DNA of 34,194 nucleotides, taken from IMG/VR virus record IMGVR_UViG_2778261184_000007, positions 1 to 34,194 of that record. One strand, 5' to 3'. The stretch is from a virus. Lineage: Duplodnaviria > Heunggongvirae > Uroviricota > Caudoviricetes. The position numbers and the translations under genes were made by a program. Each line of letters starts with the position of its first letter. The first letter of the stretch is position 1. A model generated the notes under the pieces. That model ran no database searches. It had not been told where the DNA came from and saw only the letters and a list, made by a program, of their open reading frames with translations. This document shows positions 3,804-31,176 of the stretch, in pieces.

Positions 3804-4416
3804 GCTCATCCTCCAGGCGCGCGATTTCTTCTTTAAGAGCACGTGTCTTAGCTACTTCCTGAGACAAGGCAGCTTTAACGTTACCCGTATCTTGCATTAC
3901 TTTGTCTGACTTGCTCTGGAGTTTAGACAGTTTGTCGTTAGCATTAGCGATATCTTCACGGAGTGCATCACGTGATTCTTTCGCTTCAGCTAATTTCTGA
4001 GCGTTAGATTTAACTCCCTGCCGCTTCTTATTTCCGTCATCAATATTTTTTGCTGCACGAGCAAGTTTTCGAGCTAATGACTTCTGGAAAGAAGTTGCTC
4101 CGCGATTAAATAAAGCCGCAAGAGATTGCCCCAAAGCCGACATTGTTTTTACTGGCTTGAACGGTACTGTTTTACCATTCAGTTTGATCCCAGATATATC
4201 ACCGGTATCGTTAACCTGAACTTCCATTGTCTGTTCATCAATACCAATAAGGGTAAACGTGCGCGTCATGATCCCATCTTTCTTCCTGCCATTACTGGCA
4301 GGGATCACCCTCGCTATCTTGTAACCACCTTTGCTGATTTCTTTGACGAGTTTTGCCAGCCCCTTTTCGTTTAACTCATCATAATTAAGAAGAACATAAT
4401 TATTCTTATTTGACAT
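3796..4416 (-). CDS. Hdf-position protein (about 206 aa) with C-terminal coiled coil, in dar-type operon
   Basis: ATG at 4416-4414 preceded by AAGGAG; the ORF track begins earlier on a GTG. Lies between the lydB-like and darA-like genes. Confidence 0.5.
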   Translation of the reverse strand: MSNKNNYVLLNYDELNEKGLAKLVKEISKGGYKIARVIPASNGRKKDGIMTRTFTLIGIDEQTMEVQVNDTGDISGIKLNGKTVPFKPVKTMSALGQSLAALFNRGATSFQKSLARKLARAAKNIDDGNKKRQGVKSNAQKLAEAKESRDALREDIANANDKLSKLQSKSDKVMQDTGNVKAALSQEVAKTRALKEEIARLEDEHD

Positions 4417-4852
4417 CCCAGTCTCCTTCACGCTTTCCGATCGTAAACTGGCGCTCTATGCAGTCATTGATAGGGAAAATGCGATAAAGCGGATTCAGTC
4501 GGCAGTTACCGTTAGTCAATGTGACTTTCAGATCCCACTTCGTTGGCTCAAGATATTTCGTATCGATGAGCAAATACTCTTCTCTCTCACCGCGTTTTGA
4601 GGCGTCAACTGGTCGCGTTTTCCCTGAAATAACCACAGATGGATTTTTCAGGTCTTGCAACCAATATTCGATTTGAGCATTGCTGACCCAGCTTCGCTTA
4701 ACACGTAGCGAAACAGGAAATGCTATAGCGGATTCTTTCACTACAGCGTCACCAATACTCAAAATCTCAACACTCTTGCGACGAAAAATGAAACGGTCAA
4801 TGATGGCAACAAATGCCATGATAAAAATGAAATAATTTCCAAAGTTACCCAT
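4406..4852 (-). CDS. lydB: LydB-like antiholin (148 aa)
   Basis: Follows and overlaps a 3-TM holin-like gene. Size and position match the P1 lydA-lydB pair next to cin as recalled. Confidence 0.5.
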   Translation of the reverse strand: MGNFGNYFIFIMAFVAIIDRFIFRRKSVEILSIGDAVVKESAIAFPVSLRVKRSWVSNAQIEYWLQDLKNPSVVISGKTRPVDASKRGEREEYLLIDTKYLEPTKWDLKVTLTNGNCRLNPLYRIFPINDCIERQFTIGKREGDWDVK

Positions 4853-5178
4853 TATTTCTCTCCACCTTTTCCCCCATTCGCTATTACGCTTAAGAGATTC
4901 AAGACGTTACTAGCTCTGGACTTCAAGCCCTGTAAAATTTCACTACCGTTGTTACTGGCAATCAGAACAACGCAGAAAATGATACCTTCAGGCCATTCTT
5001 GGCTAACCGCCACCCCATACCCCGCAAGCCCGGCTGTTACCGCAGTAAACAATTCACTCGCAAGATTGAGCAGGGACGCAGAAATGCGCCCATCTCTAAC
5101 TCCGAGAAGGAATACGCCGGTTCCACTTAGTAGGGATGTTATGACTACTACAGCCAGATTTTCATAATCTGCAAACAT
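4852..5178 (-). CDS. lydA: LydA-like holin (108 aa, three predicted transmembrane segments)
   Basis: Hydrophobic stretches LAVVVITSLLSGTGVFLLGV, LFTAVTAGLAGYGVAV and IIFCVVLIASN; charged C-terminus. First gene of the leftward operon. Confidence 0.55.
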   Translation of the reverse strand: MFADYENLAVVVITSLLSGTGVFLLGVRDGRISASLLNLASELFTAVTAGLAGYGVAVSQEWPEGIIFCVVLIASNNGSEILQGLKSRASNVLNLLSVIANGGKGGEK

Positions 5179-5281
5179 ACCCCTCCAGAAATAACATCTA
5201 ATGCGCCACTAACTTAGTCAGTTTGTTATTTCCTTACAGGACATCTTCTAGAATCGTATCCTTAGCATACAAGGGAGACAT

Positions 5282-5700
5282 ATGCTTATTGGATACATTC
5301 GCATATCAACAAATGACCAAAACACCGCTTTGCAACGCCCCCTTGAAAGCGCAGGATGTGAGCCAATTTTTGAGGGCAAAGCGAGTGGCAAAAAGGCTGA
5401 ACGCCAAGGGTTAAAAAAGGTTCTGCGTATGTTTTCCAGTGATGAAGCCTTGGTCGTATAGCAGTTAGAGCGGCTTGAGGGCAATTTAGTTGTGCTGCTG
5501 TAATCGCTGCGTGCCAGATGAATAAACCTTCTGAATCCCACTAATTCTATCGACATCTGTACACCAATGCAGCGCTCACGATGCAATTAAGATCAACATT
5601 ACAGGGATGGTTTTCATTAGTGGTCGGTCCGACACAAGATGCATCGAATTGATGCGCCGCGCGATAAGTGTATCTATCCCCTCGAGATAAACTACATCGA
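5282..5700 (+). pseudogene. Decayed serine DNA invertase (Hin/Gin/Cin/Pin family) remnant
   Basis: ATG at 5282 opens MLIGYIRISTNDQNTALQ...ALVV, then an in-frame TAG where the family has Trp (LVVW-KLDRLGRS here reads LVV*QLERLEGN). Further downstream TNSIDICTPMQR (cf. TDSIDTSTPMGR in the intact invertase) appears in a shifted frame. Below the 60-aa ORF-track cutoff. Confidence 0.7.
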
Positions 5701-5713
5701 CGCGGCATTTGTA

Positions 5714-6286
5714 TTACAACTCAGTTTGAGTTTGGCGCTTCTCTACAGGGTGATAACGATAAATCGTCGATACACCGATATCGTAAATAATTGCCAACTG
5801 TTTCCTGCTGTAGCCATTTTCGATCAACCTCGCTATTTGCTCATGTTGTTCTTTTGTCAACTTCGGGCGACGTCCGCCAATGCGTCCCTGTTCGCGTGCA
5901 GCTGCCAGTCCAGCCAGGGTTCTCTCAACAATTAATTCACGTTCCATTTCTGCTAAAGCCCCCATGACGTGAAAAAAGAAACGCCCCATGGGTGTTGAGG
6001 TGTCAATGCTGTCTGTCAGACTACGAAAATTAACACCTTTTTCCCGCAGCTCCTCAATAAGTGTGATCAGGTGTTTCATACTTCTGCCAAGCCTATCCAG
6101 CTTCCAGACAACCAGCGTATCTCCTTCTGATAACGTTCTGAGCAGCTTTTTCAAGCCTGGTCTGGCTGACTTTGTTCCGCTTATTTTATCTTCAAAAATC
6201 AGTTCACATCCTGCGCAGTTCAGTGCATTTCTTTGTAAATCTGTGTTTTGGTCATTTGTTGACACACGAATGTAGCCAATTTGCAT
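5714..6286 (-). CDS. cin: Cin/Min-type serine DNA invertase (190 aa from ATG)
   Basis: MQIGYIRVSTNDQNTDLQRNAL... with catalytic-serine motif, conserved LVVWKLDRLGRS and FFFHVMGALAEMERELI blocks, and C-terminal HTH; SD AAAGAGG upstream of ATG at 6286. The ORF track adds three codons from a TTG. Confidence 0.9.
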   Translation of the reverse strand: MQIGYIRVSTNDQNTDLQRNALNCAGCELIFEDKISGTKSARPGLKKLLRTLSEGDTLVVWKLDRLGRSMKHLITLIEELREKGVNFRSLTDSIDTSTPMGRFFFHVMGALAEMERELIVERTLAGLAAAREQGRIGGRRPKLTKEQHEQIARLIENGYSRKQLAIIYDIGVSTIYRYHPVEKRQTQTEL

Positions 6287-6340
6287 GAAAAACAACCTCT
6301 TTGTTTAGTTAAAAATACATCGTTGGTATAGGTAGGGATT

Positions 6341-6366
6341 AAGACTAAAACGTTGGTTTGGGGGAA
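6341..6366. other. Invertase crossover site 1 (cix/mix-like 26-bp imperfect palindrome), nearest the invertase gene
   Basis: Bottom strand reads TTCCCCCAAACC-AA-CGTTTTAGTCTT; the AAACC..GGTTT core resembles hix/gix/cix half-sites. Confidence 0.7.
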
Positions 6367-6864
6367 GGCTCTGCGCTGCCCGTTGGTGTGCCCGTTCCGT
6401 GGCCCTCAGCCACACCGCCAACGGGATGGCTGAAATGTAACGGAGCAGCATTTTCTGCTGAAGAATACCCAGAACTGGCAAAGGCTTATCCCACCAATAA
6501 ATTACCGGATTTACGCGGTGAGTTTATTCGCGGCTGGGATGACGGACGTGGTGTGGATGCGGGGAGAACAATATTATCCGCTCAAGGTGATGCCATACGT
6601 AATATCTATGGTGAGTTCAGAACTGTAAACACTGAAAATTATTCAATATGGGAATCAGTAGGCTCGTTTAAGGGGGCAGTGGTGCCTTTGAGTCCCTCAA
6701 CGAACAATAGTTATTTCTCCTTAATCAGAAGTATGGTGACAGAAAGAACAGACGGCACTGTTTACCCAAAAGTGATTGGCCTTGATGCTTCAAGAATTGT
6801 TCCAACTGCAAACGAAAACCGCCCACGCAACATTGCGTTTAATTACATCGTAAGAGCCGCATGA
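6358..6864 (+). CDS. Promoterless tail-fibre C-terminal tip cassette 1 (silent in this orientation)
   Basis: Frame opens at the TTG inside the crossover site (no ATG); conserved block GEGSALPVGVPVPWP...GWDDGRGVD, unique centre, conserved end RPRNIAFNYIVRAA. Confidence 0.75.
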   Translation: MGEGSALPVGVPVPWPSATPPTGWLKCNGAAFSAEEYPELAKAYPTNKLPDLRGEFIRGWDDGRGVDAGRTILSAQGDAIRNIYGEFRTVNTENYSIWESVGSFKGAVVPLSPSTNNSYFSLIRSMVTERTDGTVYPKVIGLDASRIVPTANENRPRNIAFNYIVRAA

Positions 6865-6883
6865 AAACGTTGGTTTGGGGGAA
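6858..6883. other. Invertase crossover site 2
   Basis: Same half-site TTCCCCCAAACC-AA-CGTTT on bottom strand, straddling the cassette 1 stop and the cassette 2 TTG. Confidence 0.7.
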
Positions 6884-7342
6884 GGCTCTGCACTGCCCGT
6901 TGGTGTGCCCGTTCCGTGGCCCTTAGAAATACCGCCAACGGGCTGGCTGAAATGTAACGGCGCAGCATTTTCTTCTGAAATGTACCCCAGGCTGGCAAAG
7001 GCTTATCCGACCAATAAATTACCGGATTTACGCGGTGAATTTATCCGTGGCTGGGATGACGGACGGGGCGTTGATAATGGACGCAACCTACTGTCTGCGC
7101 AGTCTGACGCTATTCAGAATATAGTTGGCACTTTTGGGCGTACTCAGCTTTTTAAAGATACGCTGAATTCAGGGCCATTTAGTCAAACTGACTCTATATT
7201 ATCAGTAGGCTTACAACCAACTGAGATCATTGAAGGATATGGTGCTTCTGTATGGACATTCGACGCCTCTCGCTCAGTTCGCACAGCGTCTGAAACACGC
7301 CCCCATAACATTGCGTTTAATTACATCGTAAGGGCGGCATAA
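6875..7342 (+). CDS. Promoterless tail-fibre C-terminal tip cassette 2
   Basis: Same conserved N- and C-terminal blocks with a distinct centre (…NGRNLLSAQSDAIQNIVGTFGRTQLFKDTLNSGPFSQTDSILSVGLQPTEIIEGYGASVWTFDASRSV…). Confidence 0.75.
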   Translation: MGEGSALPVGVPVPWPLEIPPTGWLKCNGAAFSSEMYPRLAKAYPTNKLPDLRGEFIRGWDDGRGVDNGRNLLSAQSDAIQNIVGTFGRTQLFKDTLNSGPFSQTDSILSVGLQPTEIIEGYGASVWTFDASRSVRTASETRPHNIAFNYIVRAA

Positions 7343-7361
7343 AAACGTTGGTTTGGGGGAA
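7336..7361. other. Invertase crossover site 3
   Basis: TTCCCCCAAACC-AA-CGTTTTTATGCC on bottom strand. Confidence 0.7.
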
Positions 7362-7814
7362 GGCTCTGCGCTGCCCGTTGGTGTGCCCGTTCCATGGCCC
7401 TCAGCCACACCGCCAACGGGATGGCTGAAATGTAACGGCGCAGCATTTTCTTCTGAAAAGTACCCAAATCTGGCAAAGGCTTACCCTACTAATAAATTGC
7501 CGGATTTACGCGGTGAATTTATTCGTGGCTGGGATGACGGACGTGGTGTGGATGCCGGGCGACAATTATTATCTTCACAGGGGGATGCAATAAGAAATAT
7601 TGAGGGGTTCGCAGATGGCGGGATTGGCATGTCTTTTGATGCAATCAGAGGGGCTTTTTATGATGCAGGAACACGATCTGCGAGAATGCCGAATAACACA
7701 ACTGATATAGGCAAAACCGATGACCTTGGATTCGACGCCTCTCGTGTCGTGCCAACAGCTAATGAAAACCGTCCTCGTAATATTGCCTTTAATTATATTG
7801 TGAGGGCGGCATAA
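7353..7814 (+). CDS. Promoterless tail-fibre C-terminal tip cassette 3
   Basis: Conserved ends, unique centre. Confidence 0.75.
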   Translation: MGEGSALPVGVPVPWPSATPPTGWLKCNGAAFSSEKYPNLAKAYPTNKLPDLRGEFIRGWDDGRGVDAGRQLLSSQGDAIRNIEGFADGGIGMSFDAIRGAFYDAGTRSARMPNNTTDIGKTDDLGFDASRVVPTANENRPRNIAFNYIVRAA

Positions 7815-7833
7815 AAACGTTGGTTTGGGAGAA
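7808..7833. other. Invertase crossover site 4
   Basis: Same motif with one substitution in the conserved half (GGGAGAAGG instead of GGGGGAAGG). Confidence 0.65.
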
Positions 7834-8301
7834 GGCTCGGCGCTGCCCGTTGGTGTGCCTGTTCCATGGCCCTCAGCCACGCCGCCAACGGGGTGGCTGA
7901 AATGTAACGGTGCAGCATTTTCTTCTGAAATGTACCCCAATCTGGCAAAGGCCTACCCCACCAATAAATTACCGGATTTACGCGGTGAATTTATCCGTGG
8001 CTGGGATGACGGACGAGGCGTTGATGCTGGACGTGCTTTATTGAGCATTCAGACTGGGATGCTGGAAAAACATCGCCATATTGTTGTTGCCAACGATGGG
8101 TATGATTCAAAAGAGGAATGGGAACTGGCGACAATCTTCAGAAGAGCATACACGCAAGGCCGGGGGCTTGATGCTGCTGATGTCGGAGGGACTCTGATTC
8201 CATCACCAACGCTTCATTCACGAGGAAGTATTGGTAACACAGGTGGTAGTGAAACCCGCCCCCGCAATATTGCATTTAACTATATCGTGAGGGCGGCTTA
8301 G
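7825..8301 (+). CDS. Promoterless tail-fibre C-terminal tip cassette 4
   Basis: Conserved ends, unique centre; converges on the chaperone gene with a 6-bp gap. Confidence 0.75.
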   Translation: MGEGSALPVGVPVPWPSATPPTGWLKCNGAAFSSEMYPNLAKAYPTNKLPDLRGEFIRGWDDGRGVDAGRALLSIQTGMLEKHRHIVVANDGYDSKEEWELATIFRRAYTQGRGLDAADVGGTLIPSPTLHSRGSIGNTGGSETRPRNIAFNYIVRAA

Positions 8302-8307
8302 TTATAT

Positions 8308-8919
8308 TCAACTGGCTGATGCCAGTGGTATTTCCGGCAAGTTGATATCTGGTGCCATGTTTATATCCATTGCGTTCAGCGCGTCTATATAATCCAGCAC
8401 GGCATTAAGCCGGGTGGTTTCTGCCTGCGTCAACTTCCGCCCGGCCCGCAACTTCAACTGAATCAGACTTATGGAATCCATTGCCGCATCAGCCAGTGAC
8501 TGGCGCTTGGTTTCTGCCGCTTCTACTGCGGCACGATGTTGTGCCTCAGTATCTGTCACCCATTTTTCACCATCCCATTTATCGTATGGTGTTAACGGGG
8601 CGATAGTGGTTGTATTTTTCGGGTAGTCACCCAGCGCCGTGATTTCTTCGGTGTTTCCCGTGTCAGTGCTATAGACGGTTTCACCACGATGGTCTGGCGC
8701 ATACTCCCATGAATTTAAATCCTCCGAACGGCGAATAGCATAGCCAGATTTATGTGCGCCTGGGGCATCTAAACAGGAATTAGCCGGAATACCAACACCC
8801 ACAGCAAGATATTCAGTTGACTCTGAAATATATTCCCGTGTCTCACCATCATAGTTATAAACGATGATGTTTCCTGCCTGTACGGCAATAAGATCATTAT
8901 TTAATATCGCGTTATTCAT
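8308..8919 (-). CDS. Tail-fibre assembly chaperone (Tfa/U-like, 203 aa)
   Basis: N-terminal region typical of Mu/P1 U and lambda Tfa-type proteins (…YDGETREYISESTEYLAVGVGIPANS…); ATG overlaps the stop of the preceding cassette by 1 nt. Confidence 0.65.
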   Translation of the reverse strand: MNNAILNNDLIAVQAGNIIVYNYDGETREYISESTEYLAVGVGIPANSCLDAPGAHKSGYAIRRSEDLNSWEYAPDHRGETVYSTDTGNTEEITALGDYPKNTTTIAPLTPYDKWDGEKWVTDTEAQHRAAVEAAETKRQSLADAAMDSISLIQLKLRAGRKLTQAETTRLNAVLDYIDALNAMDINMAPDINLPEIPLASAS

Positions 8920-9377
8920 TATGCGGCTCTCACAATATAATTGAAGGCAATATTGCGTGGACGGGTTTCATTCCCCCCTGAGGATTCCGTTCTGTATTGA
9001 CTGGAAAATTTACCATTAATCGCCCCTCCCTGGACGGCGTTATCTGTCGACAACAGACTATCCCCCCCTCTGTCATTTGGCACCAATACCGTGTTATCCC
9101 ACGCGTCCCATGACCGAATATTATGATAATGACTTCCAGTTAACCACCCCTGTATGCTTAAGATGCCCCTTCCCGCATCCACCCCGCGCCCATCATCCCA
9201 ACCGCGAATAAATTCTCCCCGTAAATCCGGTAATTTATTAGTGGGGTAAACCTTTGCCAGATTTGGGTACTTTTCAGAAGAAAATGCTGCTCCGTTACAT
9301 TTTAGCCAGCCCGTTGGTGGTGTTTCTAAGGGCCACGGAACGGGCACGCCAACGGGCAATGCTGAGCCTTCCCCCAA
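8919..9377 (-). CDS. Promoterless tail-fibre C-terminal tip cassette 5 (minus orientation, between the expressed tip and the chaperone)
   Basis: Begins at the TTG within crossover site 5; conserved N block, unique centre (…WLTGSHYHNIRSWDAWDNTVLVPNDRGGDS…), conserved RPRNIAFNYIVRAA end. Confidence 0.75.
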   Translation of the reverse strand: MGEGSALPVGVPVPWPLETPPTGWLKCNGAAFSSEKYPNLAKVYPTNKLPDLRGEFIRGWDDGRGVDAGRGILSIQGWLTGSHYHNIRSWDAWDNTVLVPNDRGGDSLLSTDNAVQGGAINGKFSSQYRTESSGGNETRPRNIAFNYIVRAA

Positions 9378-9394
9378 ACCAACGTTTCTATGCC
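9369..9394. other. Invertase crossover site 5 (inverted relative to sites 1-4)
   Basis: Top strand TTCCCCCAAACC-AA-CGTTTCTATGCC. Confidence 0.7.
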
Positions 9395-11694
9395 GCTCTT
9401 ACGATGTAATTAAATGCAATATTACGCGGACGAGCTGATACATAAGCCCACCAGTCATATTTTTGGGCACCTTTACTGGATGCATCAAATATCCACTTTT
9501 TGCCATTTATGGCCCCCCATTGATTAGAGGTTAAAGTGTCACCAAATCCGTATTGTGGTGAGCTGAGTGAACTGATATCCCCAGTATCATTATCATCAAA
9601 ACCGGAGACGATAGTGCCTTCCTGAAATGAAAGTATCTCTCGTCCTGCATCAATACCTCGTCCGTCATCCCAGCCACGGATAAATTCGCCCCGTAAATCC
9701 GGTAATTTATTGGTCGGATAAGCCTTTGCCAGTCTGGGGTACATTTCAGAAGAAAATGCTGCTCCGTTACATTTCAGCCATCCCGTTGGCGGTGTGGCTG
9801 AGGGCCATGGAACGGGCACACCAACGGGCAGCGCAGAGCCTTCCCCCAAACCAAGGTAATCAAGAACGCCCTGAGTGCTGGTTTTACCAAGAATGGCACG
9901 CCCAACACTTGTCAACGCGGTTAACGCGGCACGATCTTCCCCTGTAAAATATGGGAGTTTATCTGCTGATGTAGCAAGCTCTGCCAGCGCCGTCAGGGTG
10001 GCATCCTTCGGTTGCTTACCCGCAAGCGCGTTAGTCATGGTGGTCGCAAAATTCGGGTCGTTGCCCAGCGCCGCCGCTAACTCGTTCAGCGTATTCAGTG
10101 CGTCAGGCGACGAGTCTACAAGTGCGGCAATCGCGGCCATAACGAAAGCCGTGCTTGCGATCTGGGTATTATTAGTCCCCTGTGGCGCTGTTGGTGTTGT
10201 TGGCGTTCCGGTCAGTGCCGGGCTGTTTAATGGTGCTTTCTTGTTCGTTTCATCCATTACCGCCTTAACAGCTTTTGGTGTCGCTGCCAGCGTTTCAGAC
10301 GTGCTGTTCGTGGCGCTACTAAGCTGAACTATCCCTTTTTGTGCCGTCGTAGCGTCCTGTGCTGTGTATTTGCCATTAGCAAGATCATACGCTGCCTTAA
10401 CTGCCTTAGGCGTTGCTGCAAGAGTTTCAGACGAGCTGTTGATGGCACTACTAAGTTGTACAATGCCGCTCTGAGTGAGGCTGGCTGCTGGTACGTCGGT
10501 AATCTGGCTCCAAGGGTGGTTATGGCTGGCGTTGGCACACTCTGCAAAGCGAGCACTTAACCAGGAACTCAACCAACCGTCTCCCCACTGACTGCCATAC
10601 ACATCACCACCGGTGCTATAACGTGCATCCCCTATCAGAAGCTCTTTTAATGAGGTAATACTTCTTTCCGTGAAAAGGAACACACGCTGGCCGTTGGCGA
10701 ACACGGACAATGCGCCGTCTCCTTCATGTTTAATTCCGGTATCGTCATCGCCCAGCGTCAGAGAGTTCCCCCCCAGTCTGTTGTTGGTATTGATGCCGAA
10801 TGCAGAGGTCTGCGGCAGATTAAGTTTACCTGTCATAGTGTCGCCATCTTTGGCAACTTTTTCTCCAATCAGGCGAGTCACTGTCGCGGAAAAGTTCGGA
10901 TCATTACCAAGCGCGGCGGCCAGTTCGTTCAGAGTGTTAAGTGCGTCAGGCGATGAGTCTACAAGTTCAGCAATCGCAGCCATAACGAAAGCTGTGCTTG
11001 CGATCTGAGTGTTATTCGTTCCCTTAGTCGCCGTTGGTGCTGTTGGCGTCCCTGTCAGATTCGGGCTGTTGATCGGGGCTTTTGTATCAACCAAATCATG
11101 GAGAGTTTTGACAGCCAGAGGTGTAGCCGCTTTTCTTTCTTCTGTACTGCTTATTTCATTAGAGAATTCGACACCAACAGCACGGTTAACCCGGTATTTA
11201 AGCACAATCATTTCTTTAGTCACAGCCGTTGCGCCGCTAGGCACGATAACTCGACATAATTCAATTTGATTCTGCCCAATAGTATTGTCCGTACGCGCGT
11301 AAATTCTTGCAGCACTGACAGAAGATGCGCTATCTACCTGTGTCGTTTTTACACCATGTTCAAAATTGGCTTCCAGCACAATAATGTTGGTAGCCCCTGC
11401 CTTTACCGAGACAGTCACATCTTCTATTTGCTGAACGGATATCTGAACATTATTTACATCTACTGAAGCAGCCCCTTTACCTTCTGAGTTTTCAGAAGTT
11501 ATACGGACACTCAACCCTGTGCCGGGAACCGGTTCAAATCCACAGTAAAAGCCAGGCAAAACAATATTTTTAAGTTTTCTGTTAAGAGCCGAACTACTAT
11601 AGAGTTCGAAATATTGAACATCAGCAAGCAACGGCTGTGAGACACCAGAGGATAGTGTCATTATGTTGTTCGTTTTATCAGCACCCATAATCAA
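9388..11694 (-). CDS. Tail fibre protein (S-like, 768 aa): constant N-terminal part fused to the currently expressed variable tip
   Basis: Repeated fibre motifs (GIVQLSS..NS.SETLAATPKAVKA three times; NTLNELAAALGNDPNF twice); C-terminal 150 aa carry the same conserved blocks as the cassettes; ATGA overlap with the upstream R-like gene. Confidence 0.85.
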   Translation of the reverse strand: MIMGADKTNNIMTLSSGVSQPLLADVQYFELYSSSALNRKLKNIVLPGFYCGFEPVPGTGLSVRITSENSEGKGAASVDVNNVQISVQQIEDVTVSVKAGATNIIVLEANFEHGVKTTQVDSASSVSAARIYARTDNTIGQNQIELCRVIVPSGATAVTKEMIVLKYRVNRAVGVEFSNEISSTEERKAATPLAVKTLHDLVDTKAPINSPNLTGTPTAPTATKGTNNTQIASTAFVMAAIAELVDSSPDALNTLNELAAALGNDPNFSATVTRLIGEKVAKDGDTMTGKLNLPQTSAFGINTNNRLGGNSLTLGDDDTGIKHEGDGALSVFANGQRVFLFTERSITSLKELLIGDARYSTGGDVYGSQWGDGWLSSWLSARFAECANASHNHPWSQITDVPAASLTQSGIVQLSSAINSSSETLAATPKAVKAAYDLANGKYTAQDATTAQKGIVQLSSATNSTSETLAATPKAVKAVMDETNKKAPLNSPALTGTPTTPTAPQGTNNTQIASTAFVMAAIAALVDSSPDALNTLNELAAALGNDPNFATTMTNALAGKQPKDATLTALAELATSADKLPYFTGEDRAALTALTSVGRAILGKTSTQGVLDYLGLGEGSALPVGVPVPWPSATPPTGWLKCNGAAFSSEMYPRLAKAYPTNKLPDLRGEFIRGWDDGRGIDAGREILSFQEGTIVSGFDDNDTGDISSLSSPQYGFGDTLTSNQWGAINGKKWIFDASSKGAQKYDWWAYVSARPRNIAFNYIVRAA
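9841..9866. other. Invertase crossover site 6, inside the expressed tail-fibre gene at the constant/variable junction
   Basis: Top strand TTCCCCCAAACC-AA-GGTAATCAAGAA: conserved half-site intact, other half diverged because it is constrained by coding sequence (…DYLGLGEGS…). Confidence 0.65.
10050..10225. repeat. Intragenic direct repeat copy A within the tail-fibre gene (about 175 bp)
   Basis: Roughly 85% identical to 10890-11065 by eye; encodes the duplicated …NTQIASTAFVMAAIA.LVDSSPDALNTLNELAAALGNDPNF… block. Confidence 0.7.
10890..11065. repeat. Intragenic direct repeat copy B within the tail-fibre gene
   Basis: Partner of the 10050-10225 copy. Confidence 0.7.
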
Positions 11695-12137
11695 CCCTCA
11701 ACTTGCTCGATTGTCATGAGAATACTGTAACGTTTACCTTTATAGAGGGTGTCTTGCTGGGTGCAAAGCACAGCAAAAGCCTGTTCCTCAGCATCCACAA
11801 GCACAAGCGTGTTAAAGTCGTAAGGCGTGTTATCCGGCATTCTTTCTTGAGGGAAGGCTGCATTGATAGTGATAATCCCATCCACACTGGACAATATCAG
11901 ATCGGACACAGCAAACTGTTGAGCGTTACTCAATTTAAAATCGAGTGGAATGTCCGCTATATTCCAGCCTCCTGCACCATTAGCAGTTACCAGACTAGAT
12001 TTGCACCAATACGCCTTAGAGATAACAAAACGCGCACCTTTGCCGATCGCCGACTCAGCGCGGCGTGAATAATAGTAGGAAAGCAATTGCGCCTTATACA
12101 GGCGGTTACCATCTCTTGCCTTTAAATTTTCAGCCAT
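11691..12137 (-). CDS. Tail-fibre-associated structural protein (R-position, 148 aa)
   Basis: Immediately upstream of and translationally coupled to the tail-fibre gene; assignment by synteny only. Confidence 0.45.
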   Translation of the reverse strand: MAENLKARDGNRLYKAQLLSYYYSRRAESAIGKGARFVISKAYWCKSSLVTANGAGGWNIADIPLDFKLSNAQQFAVSDLILSSVDGIITINAAFPQERMPDNTPYDFNTLVLVDAEEQAFAVLCTQQDTLYKGKRYSILMTIEQVEG

Positions 12138-12202
12138 ACGAACATAGCCCCTTCATAAGCAATGAACCAATGGAGAGTATGCTCAGTTTGTGATTTCCGT
12201 TG

Positions 12203-19513: not shown

Positions 19514-19655
19514 TTATTCCTCCGAAAAGCAGGTATCTGTTCATTTTCCAGAGGATAGGGAGTGTGTGATTTGCGATGGGGATTGAATGAAGATCTTTGC
19601 TAGTCGAGAAGCGATTATTGAGGGTGATTTTTACACCTTAAGTGACGCTACTCAC

Positions 19656-28136: not shown

Positions 28137-28294
28137 GGTTAAGCCCTAAATTCGGGCGCGGCGTGAAGGTTCTTTTGACGGGCTAACAATACCTACTTTG
28201 TGATTTAGTCAATAGGTTTAGTAAAATAAAATATATTAACACTCATGTTGTTATGTGATTTAATTTTAGTTTTCTAACACAAAACATTAGAGTT

Positions 28295-30935: not shown

Positions 30936-30979
30936 TCTTCATCTCCTGGTTATCCTCCTATTGTCATCACTTTGTTATT

Positions 30980-31176
30980 TCGTCATTCAAACTGAGAGTT
31001 AAATTTCGGAATATTTTTGTATTCTCAATTCATTCTCAAATAAATCTCACTGTCAGACCATCATTCATTTGGTGATTAAGATATTCTCAAAATGAACTCA
31101 ATAATCACTCTTTTTTATCTCTTTTGGTGTGGATTTTTGGTTGCTTCTCTTTTAAAATTGCATTTTGATTCTCAAA
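30980..31176. repeat. Centromere-like repeat region upstream of parM (parC-type)
   Basis: Repeated ATTCTCAA(A) units at 31021, 31032, 31083, 31168 and TCATTCA variants in an AT-rich divergent promoter region. Confidence 0.5.

Follow-up and report, generated by a model that had tools for sequence, protein, structure and literature searches.

The window analysed here, by which we mean the whole stretch of 34,194 nucleotides (34 kb), is part of a P1-like phage-plasmid, as seen from open reading frame (ORF) calls, Pfam matches, and DNA searches; the latter returned matches in hundreds of 90-100 kb non-mobilizable plasmids of E. coli, Salmonella, and Klebsiella. Gene order is of the P1 type (lydAB, invertase, invertible region, S, R). 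The ORF list and Pfam also show genes for baseplate proteins and a transglycosylase upstream. The genes and tip cassettes of the region are the following:

4406-5178, LydA/LydB holin genes
5282-5461, plus strand, truncated second invertase gene of 59 aa, a pseudogene relic (65% identity to the N terminus of the invertase, E 2e-23)
5714-6295, minus strand, Min-like serine DNA invertase of 193 aa (Resolvase PF00239, 2.2e-51, and C-terminal HTH_7 PF02796, 3.5e-15)
6358-6864, plus strand, silent tip cassette 1 (simple segment A)
6875-7342, plus strand, silent tip cassette 2 (simple segment B)
7353-7814, plus strand, silent tip cassette 3 (simple segment C)
7825-8301, plus strand, silent tip cassette 4 (one end of segment D), convergent with tfa
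8308-8919, minus strand, tfa, tail-fibre assembly chaperone gene of 203 aa (Caudo_TAP, E 2.4e-31)
8919-9377, minus strand, silent tip cassette 5 of 152 aa (the tfa-linked end of segment D), with a collar Pfam match (1.1e-14) and an HxH motif
9388-11694, minus strand, tail-fibre gene of 768 aa with Phage_fiber_2 repeats and a C-terminal Phage Tail Collar domain
9388-9852, minus strand, currently expressed tip (segment E), fused in frame to the constant part Sc
9855-11694, minus strand, constant part Sc of the tail-fibre gene (Pfam PF03406, E 6e-46), with an internal 207-nt duplication
11691-12137, minus strand, small ORF (148 aa) that precedes the fibre gene and occupies the place of R in P1, with no Pfam match

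Searched with tblastn over the whole 34 kb, the window contains exactly six collar-type tips, all built to one plan in which the first ~69 residues are invariant and are followed by a variable insert of 70-85 aa and then by a conserved C terminus. The first-pass annotation had described this C terminus as common to all tips, which holds for five of the six, where the terminal 14-mer RPRNIAFNYIVRAA is exact, and fails for cassette 2, which ends in RPHNIAFNYIVRAA (RPHN...). The HxH motif is kept only in cassettes 4 and 5. In the PDB, the expressed tip (9388-9852) matches 9cuy (E 7e-18) and T4 gp37 (2XGF, E 1.5e-14). Alignment of the tips with the short tail fibre 9cuy runs end to end, and alignment with 2XGF falls into two pieces, the collar N-part and the last residues. 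The gp37 collar (D10) comprises residues 811-881 and 1010-1026, with the needle inserted between them (PMC6957217). Because the tips match 2XGF in two pieces and the D10 limits are divided in this way, RPRNIAFNYIVRAA is most simply read as the returning strand that would close a gp37/Stf-type collar domain. The docking role that the first-pass annotation suggested for the conserved C terminus may exist by analogy: T4 gp37 needs a specific chaperone, and gp38 has been proposed to draw the C-terminal ends of gp37 to one another (PMC3004832). Besides encoding the end of the tip, the last codons of the 14-mer make up the upstream half of the following crossover site, and the Shine-Dalgarno sequence (GAGAG/GAGGG) for tfa lies within them. 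An AlphaFold2 model of a tip, with an alignment consisting of the six window tips alone, reached a pLDDT of 38 and was discarded.

The cassettes are bounded by six 26-bp crossover sites of the form N12-TT-GGTTTGGG(G/A)GAA, that is, with a common half and a central TT. Cores of the AAACGTTGGTTT type were observed 7 times against 1.5 expected, and the form of the sites agrees with published invertase crossover sites of collar-type prophage fibres (table in PMC4134206). Four sites, before cassettes 1-4, are on the plus strand and two are on the minus strand:

6341-6366, plus strand, crossover site s1, the outer site, which adjoins the invertase gene
6858-6883, plus strand, crossover site s2, before cassette 2
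7336-7361, plus strand, crossover site s3, before cassette 3
7808-7833, plus strand, crossover site s4, before cassette 4
9369-9394, minus strand, crossover site s5, before cassette 5, GGCATAGAAACG TT GGTTTGGGGGAA
9841-9866, minus strand, crossover site s6, at the constant-variable junction of Sc and tip, TTCTTGATTACC TT GGTTTGGGGGAA

Directly after the central TT, the same LGEGSALPVG... frame opens all six cassettes, which makes in-frame fusion of each to Sc possible. Homologues of the invertase that are 96-100% identical adjoin multi-cassette regions, and the 52-bp flank between the invertase and s1 (6296-6347) is kept in 21 related loci.

The p15B/Min-type multiple DNA-inversion system of P1-like phage-plasmids, named for plasmid p15B of E. 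coli 15T-, was described in 1990-92 and is widespread, with at least 207 plasmid records in our DNA search. The truncated invertase gene at 5282-5461, beside the active one, corresponds to the relic described for p15B as psi-win. Because of this truncated gene, and because segment D is 88% identical over 100% coverage to plasmid pMCR_SCKP-LL83, whose invertible region was reported to be 99% identical to p15B min (PMC5786510), the locus is a member of this known system. The window shares with p15B Min and with the min-like C-segment of the P1/P7-like phage-plasmid pMCR_SCKP-LL83 a Din-family invertase that adjoins the invertible region and six crossover sites; with p15B Min a constant 5' fibre gene joined to one of six 3' cassettes in 240 isomers (PMC2481393); and with pMCR_SCKP-LL83 a single tfaE-like gene that overlaps a cassette stop. 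It differs from both in its cassette set and nucleotide sequence (~88% in D).

The arrangement of the sites determines where tfa can lie relative to the fibre gene. Segments A, B, C, and E each carry one upstream half and one tip half of a crossover site. Segment D (7821-9381), in which cassette 4 is convergent with tfa and cassette 5, carries two tip halves and is thus "double-headed." A breadth-first search over inversions between oppositely oriented sites reached exactly 240 isomers, the number reported for p15B Min (PMC2481393), and every arrangement has the same pattern: Sc, k forward simple cassettes, D in either direction, 4-k reversed simple cassettes, and the invertase flank. Because the forward sites are all on the Sc side of D and the reverse sites all on the other, every inversion includes D, and therefore each event moves tfa to the other strand. 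In 120 of the 240 isomers fibre, tip, and chaperone are collinear, with tfa on the fibre strand; in the other 120 tfa is antisense. Only when cassette 5 is expressed does tfa lie directly behind the expressed tip (24/240); in 96/240 it is one to four silent cassettes further downstream. For each simple tip, tfa is collinear in half of the states (24 of 48). For cassette 4 it is collinear in none of the 24 states, since with cassette 4 expressed tfa is always antisense.

The isomer in the window has k = 1 with D forward, so that cassette 5 and then tfa come after the expressed tip. The first-pass annotation had correctly placed tfa behind silent cassette 5 with a 1-nt overlap: the tfa start and the cassette 5 stop share base 8919 (TAATG on the minus strand), and the Shine-Dalgarno sequence GAGAG for tfa sits within the final codons of cassette 5. 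Its description of the chaperone gene as wired behind a silent cassette is true of this isomer, which is one transient state of 240 and not a design feature. The expectation that some inversions would move tfa to the strand opposite the fibre gene is confirmed by the 120 antisense isomers, and all eight single inversions from the window state have this effect.

As the same annotation had proposed, the window holds a single Tfa/U-like gene: tblastn across the 34 kb gave one copy and no second Tfa (next best match E 0.068). The Caudo_TAP domain spans residues 78-198 of the protein and scores 109 bits against a Pfam cut-off of 22.1. A further tfa just outside the window had been named as an observation that would speak against a single chaperone. 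In the closest complete plasmids, CP123702.1 (Tfa 100% identical) and NZ_CP147095.1 (99.5%), there is one Tfa-homologous place per whole replicon, which makes a second tfa just beyond the window unlikely. The protein is homologous over its full length to λ Tfa (36% identity across residues 14-199, E 1e-35). A search of the PDB with the Tfa sequence gave no meaningful match.

A junction of this kind, with the chaperone gene directly downstream of tip-coding sequence, is present in 68 of the 83 Tfa homologues surveyed, and in other phages the family was found directly behind at least 17 unrelated tip-head clusters. Its partners include homologues of cassette 1 (10 times), cassette 2 (once), cassette 4 (twice), and cassette 5 (21 times). 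Between partners whose heads are <30% identical, the N-domain of Tfa remains 71-100% identical (mean 82%), with no co-variation. The alternative tfa' of two-tip systems has only residues 120-202 in common with it, at ~31%, and its partner is a non-collar tip. Since the family stands behind at least 17 unrelated heads, its N-domain does not co-vary with them, and tfa' pairs with a non-collar tip, Tfa probably assists collar-class tips in general and not individual heads. The earlier suggestion that one chaperone could serve all tips is plausible on the same grounds. By elimination, the collar module would be the only surface common to all Tfa partners. We also considered whether only tips of the HxH type need Tfa, an idea that we rejected because Tfa is also found behind DAIRNI-type heads in other phages. 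A published modular model of Tfa assigns fibre binding to the N-domain and trimerisation to the conserved C-domain (PMC9608196); the identities among N-domains and the part shared with tfa' are consistent with that model.

Related loci offer a view of the switch in other states. A tfa-anchored scan of viral contigs, together with nine complete plasmids, gave 27 multi-cassette loci (the window included), each with 3-11 cassettes and always with a single tfa. In 17 of these loci the gene shares the strand of Sc or the invertase, and in 10 it has the opposite orientation, a distribution that is not different from 1:1 (binomial p = 0.25). Closely related plasmids and contigs carry different isomers, with both orientations of tfa and with one to five tips between Sc and tfa, and comparison of these relatives indicates that inversions do occur in Min-type loci. 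All 21 occurrences of a cass5-type tip show linkage to tfa, and among Min-type loci 20 of 21 have tfa joined to one and the same tip type. A cass4-type tip is convergent with tfa in 15 loci. All cassette types are intact ORFs under purifying selection (dN/dS 0.07-0.39), including the cass4-type tips, with dN/dS 0.07 among 17 distinct unlinked sequences (mean dS 0.39). Other P1-like plasmids, such as pKFS-B20_2, have two convergent tfa genes and an extra cassette; therefore, both single-tfa and two-tfa solutions exist in the P1-like family.

As a source of the tfa transcript, one candidate promoter lies upstream of the fibre operon:

12176-12196, minus strand, late-promoter-like box AAATCACAAACTGAGCATACT, a putative promoter upstream of the R-S fibre operon

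Copies of the AAATCACAAACTGAGCATACT motif without a mismatch are also present upstream of lydA (5211-5231) and at 30960-30980. The general form of the box is AAATMACAAASTGA-N-nAnnnT, and positions 28186 and 19552 have weaker copies. Every copy is on the minus strand, and six sites were found against 1.4 expected. No copy with up to three mismatches was found on either strand of 6296-9860, sigma-70-like and terminator-like matches in the invertible region were at chance level only, and no terminator-like site was found on the minus strand from 9388 to 8919. In D-forward states, tfa mRNA would likely be produced by read-through from the R-S promoter. For D-reversed states, promoter and box scans of the invertible region returned no source of tfa mRNA. 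A promoter of its own for tfa, one of the options raised in the first-pass annotation, was thus not borne out by prediction, as neither a late-promoter box nor a conserved sigma-70 promoter was found in the invertible region. The invertase-side flank contains TGGTATAGG, an extended -10-like element that faces the cassettes; this conserved flank may simply be the invertase promoter.

Two individual matches within the cassettes were set aside. A sigma-70-like site in cassette 5 (9328 to 9299, TAGAAA-18-TAAAAT), considered as a promoter that travels with tfa, is shared by only 2 of the 21 homologues of cass5 type, and its variants also turn up here and there in unlinked cassettes. The sequence CAAACTGACTCTATAT in cassette 2 (from 7183), considered as a late promoter, has neither the upstream half of the box nor the -10 spacing, and the site most similar to it (18684) directly adjoins the start codon of sit and is not a promoter.

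On balance, and with moderate confidence, we favour a reading in which one λ-Tfa-type chaperone serves the six collar tips of a p15B/Min switch and tfa is read through from the late fibre promoter. In outline, the Din-family serine invertase would recombine the six 26-bp sites so that any of the six tips can be fused to the constant fibre gene, and the remaining cassettes would be shuffled among the 240 isomers, with segment D included each time and tfa flipping with it. Transcription of tfa would come from the putative late promoter at 12176-12196 upstream of R-S, and its translation would start from the Shine-Dalgarno sequence that it has at the end of cassette 5. The protein would then act on all six tips through their common module, consisting of the 69-aa collar N-part and the 14-aa C-terminal strand, with its N-domain matched to the collar class of tips and not to the individual receptor-binding head. 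Several observations count against this explanation: tfa is antisense in 120 of the 240 isomers with no late-promoter box in the region; sigma-70-like matches there are at chance level, and the one in cassette 5 is not conserved; cass4-type tips are under strong purifying selection although tfa is never expressed with them in cis, so that Tfa may be dispensable at times or be supplied by a route that our scans did not reveal; and the 20/21 linkage of tfa to one tip type in Min-type loci would also be expected of a cognate pair.

Such a cognate pair, in which Tfa would serve cassette 5 only, as U serves Sv in P1, and the other five tips would fold without Tfa or use chaperones of the host or of other phages, is in our judgment unlikely. 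It would account for the coupling of tfa to cass5-type tips by a stop/start overlap and by linkage in 20 of 21 Min-type loci, for simple cassettes that lack a chaperone of their own, and for purifying selection on a cass4-type tip that is never co-expressed with tfa in cis. However, prophages of P2-like and other kinds have Tfa proteins ~78% identical to that of the window directly behind at least 16 further head types, among them homologues of cassettes 1, 2, and 4; the N-domain of Tfa and the head do not co-vary; and the linkage to cass5-type tips follows from segment D being inherited as one piece.

The remaining alternatives accept a universal chaperone and differ in how it would be supplied. 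If a promoter travelled with tfa or sat in the fixed invertase-side flank, expression would be independent of orientation and all 240 isomers would be productive. Purifying selection on cass4-type tips and the intact ORFs of all cassettes (dN/dS 0.07-0.39) are in keeping with this, as are the conservation of the 52-bp flank across lineages, with TGGTATAGG pointing into the cassettes, and the fact that in D-reversed isomers every cassette between the flank and tfa has the polarity of tfa. We nonetheless regard this as doubtful: the late-promoter box is absent from both region and flank, the sigma-70 scan is at chance level, the TATAGG element lacks the conserved final T in a flank that may be the invertase promoter, and the sigma-70-like site of cassette 5 is not conserved. 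Were the chaperone instead strictly dependent on co-expression in cis, which corresponds to the other option of the first-pass annotation (only a subset of arrangements productive), only the 120 collinear isomers would be functional, maybe more weakly so with distance, and the other half would be a tolerated cost. The topology of the inversions, the failure to detect an independent promoter, and the approximately equal orientations in prophage DNA, which would be expected if selection acts only at the virion stage, all fit this account. But the fibre with cassette 4 would then never be functional, although cass4-type tips are conserved in 15 loci with dN/dS 0.07, and the cost would fall on 50% of lysogens; we consider it quite improbable. 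A strict need for Tfa co-expressed in cis is unlikely to explain everything, because cass4-type tips never have tfa in cis yet have dN/dS 0.07. Either some tips would fold without Tfa, or Tfa would be supplied independently of orientation. A more speculative proposal, which we advance with little confidence, is that a class-level Tfa recognises the invariant collar module and that a mechanism of supply or bypass is needed in half of the isomers, and always for cassette 4. Such a mechanism could be a promoter in the invertase flank, as a counterpart to the late fibre promoter, or chaperone-independent folding of collar tips.

Resistance genes are often carried by P1-like phage-plasmids, which are also used as vehicles for DNA delivery, and the switch sets their host range. 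The Min-type switch itself is already known, and how one flipping chaperone would serve shuffled tips is a modest but testable question. If one λ-Tfa-type chaperone suffices for any collar tip, chimeric fibres would be simpler to build, as only the ~80-aa head would need to be swapped and a single chaperone could be kept. If half of the isomers are without chaperone, this would explain heterogeneous infectivity of lysates. Supply or bypass of a flipping Tfa, if true, would amount to a new rule for chaperone dependence in host-range switches that work by shuffling.

Several features of the locus recur in other well-known systems. The Cin/C-segment of P1 and the Gin/G-segment of Mu use the same invertase family and likewise swap the C terminus of the fibre. 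As the first-pass annotation had stated, P1 and Mu carry a chaperone for each tip (U/U'), with two sites, two tips, and each chaperone always collinear with its tip (PMC13172314), whereas in the window six sites serve six collar-class tips, and the one chaperone gene is flipped by every inversion. The λ stf-tfa pair, which supplies the full-length homologue of Tfa, has the same 1-nt overlap of tfa with the fibre stop (orf-314/orf-194). Both the collar N-part and the C-terminal NIAFNYIVR(L/A)A of the window tips are also found in λ Stf (as NIAFNYIVRLA) and in T4 gp37. The heads of the window tips are much shorter than that of T4 gp37 (~70-85 aa inserted vs. 128); unlike the window, λ and T4 have no inversion system. 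The shufflon of R64 is similar in that overlapping multiple inversions choose one C-terminal adhesin segment (PMC2481393), and it differs in its tyrosine recombinase Rci, in acting on the pilus tip adhesin PilV, and in the absence of a chaperone gene.

Tip sequences in the invertible region divide by cassette. All four simple tips are of the DAIRNI/other type, which is the type that the short tail fibre 9cuy resembles, and HxH motifs are confined to the two tips of segment D, where they recall those known from the iron-binding needle of T4 gp37:
8050-8075, HxH motif of cassette 4 (EKHRHIV)
9110-9135, HxH motif of cassette 5 (GSHYHNI)

Otherwise unrelated cassette types share short patches in a mosaic fashion (PLET versus PSAT, CTA versus CTG), seen at codons 14-30 of the window cassettes (e.g., 9290-9340) and at the homologous positions in the related loci L001-L081. 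Such a distribution over unrelated types hints that the conserved stretches encoding the collar have undergone gene conversion with one another.

Two of the related loci have unusual layouts. In one IMG/VR contig (L007, 6079-9095), two D segments, each bearing the chaperone gene tfa, lie head to head with their collar N-termini overlapping; the half-site rules make such a layout impossible, and the locus is most likely an assembly chimera joining two inversion isomers. The P1-like plasmid pKFS-B20_2 (L082, 2660-5719) carries two convergent, overlapping tfa genes together with one extra cassette that lacks a chaperone, and is intermediate between P1, with two tips and two chaperones, and the Min type, in which many tips share one chaperone.

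Remnants of inversion genes are also found beside the active invertase, outside the invertible region in the case of the collar-tip relic:
5282-5461 (+), truncated invertase N-terminus (59 aa, 65% identity to the active invertase)
5567-5649 (-), decayed 3' end of a collar tip

The two invertase genes are divergently oriented, and the relic, which lies between them (FDASCVGPTTNENHPCNVDLNCIVSAA compared with FDASRVVPTANENRPRNIAFNYIVRAA), looks like a fossil seventh cassette left from an older inversion module.

On the other side of the active gene, the stretch from the invertase start to the outer crossover site is conserved in three lineages and contains TGGTATAGG, pointing toward the cassettes; it could be either the promoter of the invertase or an inward one:
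6296-6347, 52-bp flank

Elsewhere in the window, upstream of operon starts, lies a common box, AAATMACAAASTGA, with a -10-like hexamer after it; these sites are probably the element's P1-type late promoters:
5211-5231 (-), box and hexamer
12176-12196 (-), box and hexamer
30960-30980 (-), box and hexamer
28186-28206 (-), box and hexamer
19552-19572 (-), box and hexamer

The constant fibre part contains an internal direct duplication, with which its Phage_fiber_2 repeats coincide:
10033-10239 and 10876-11082, 207-nt copies (80% identity)
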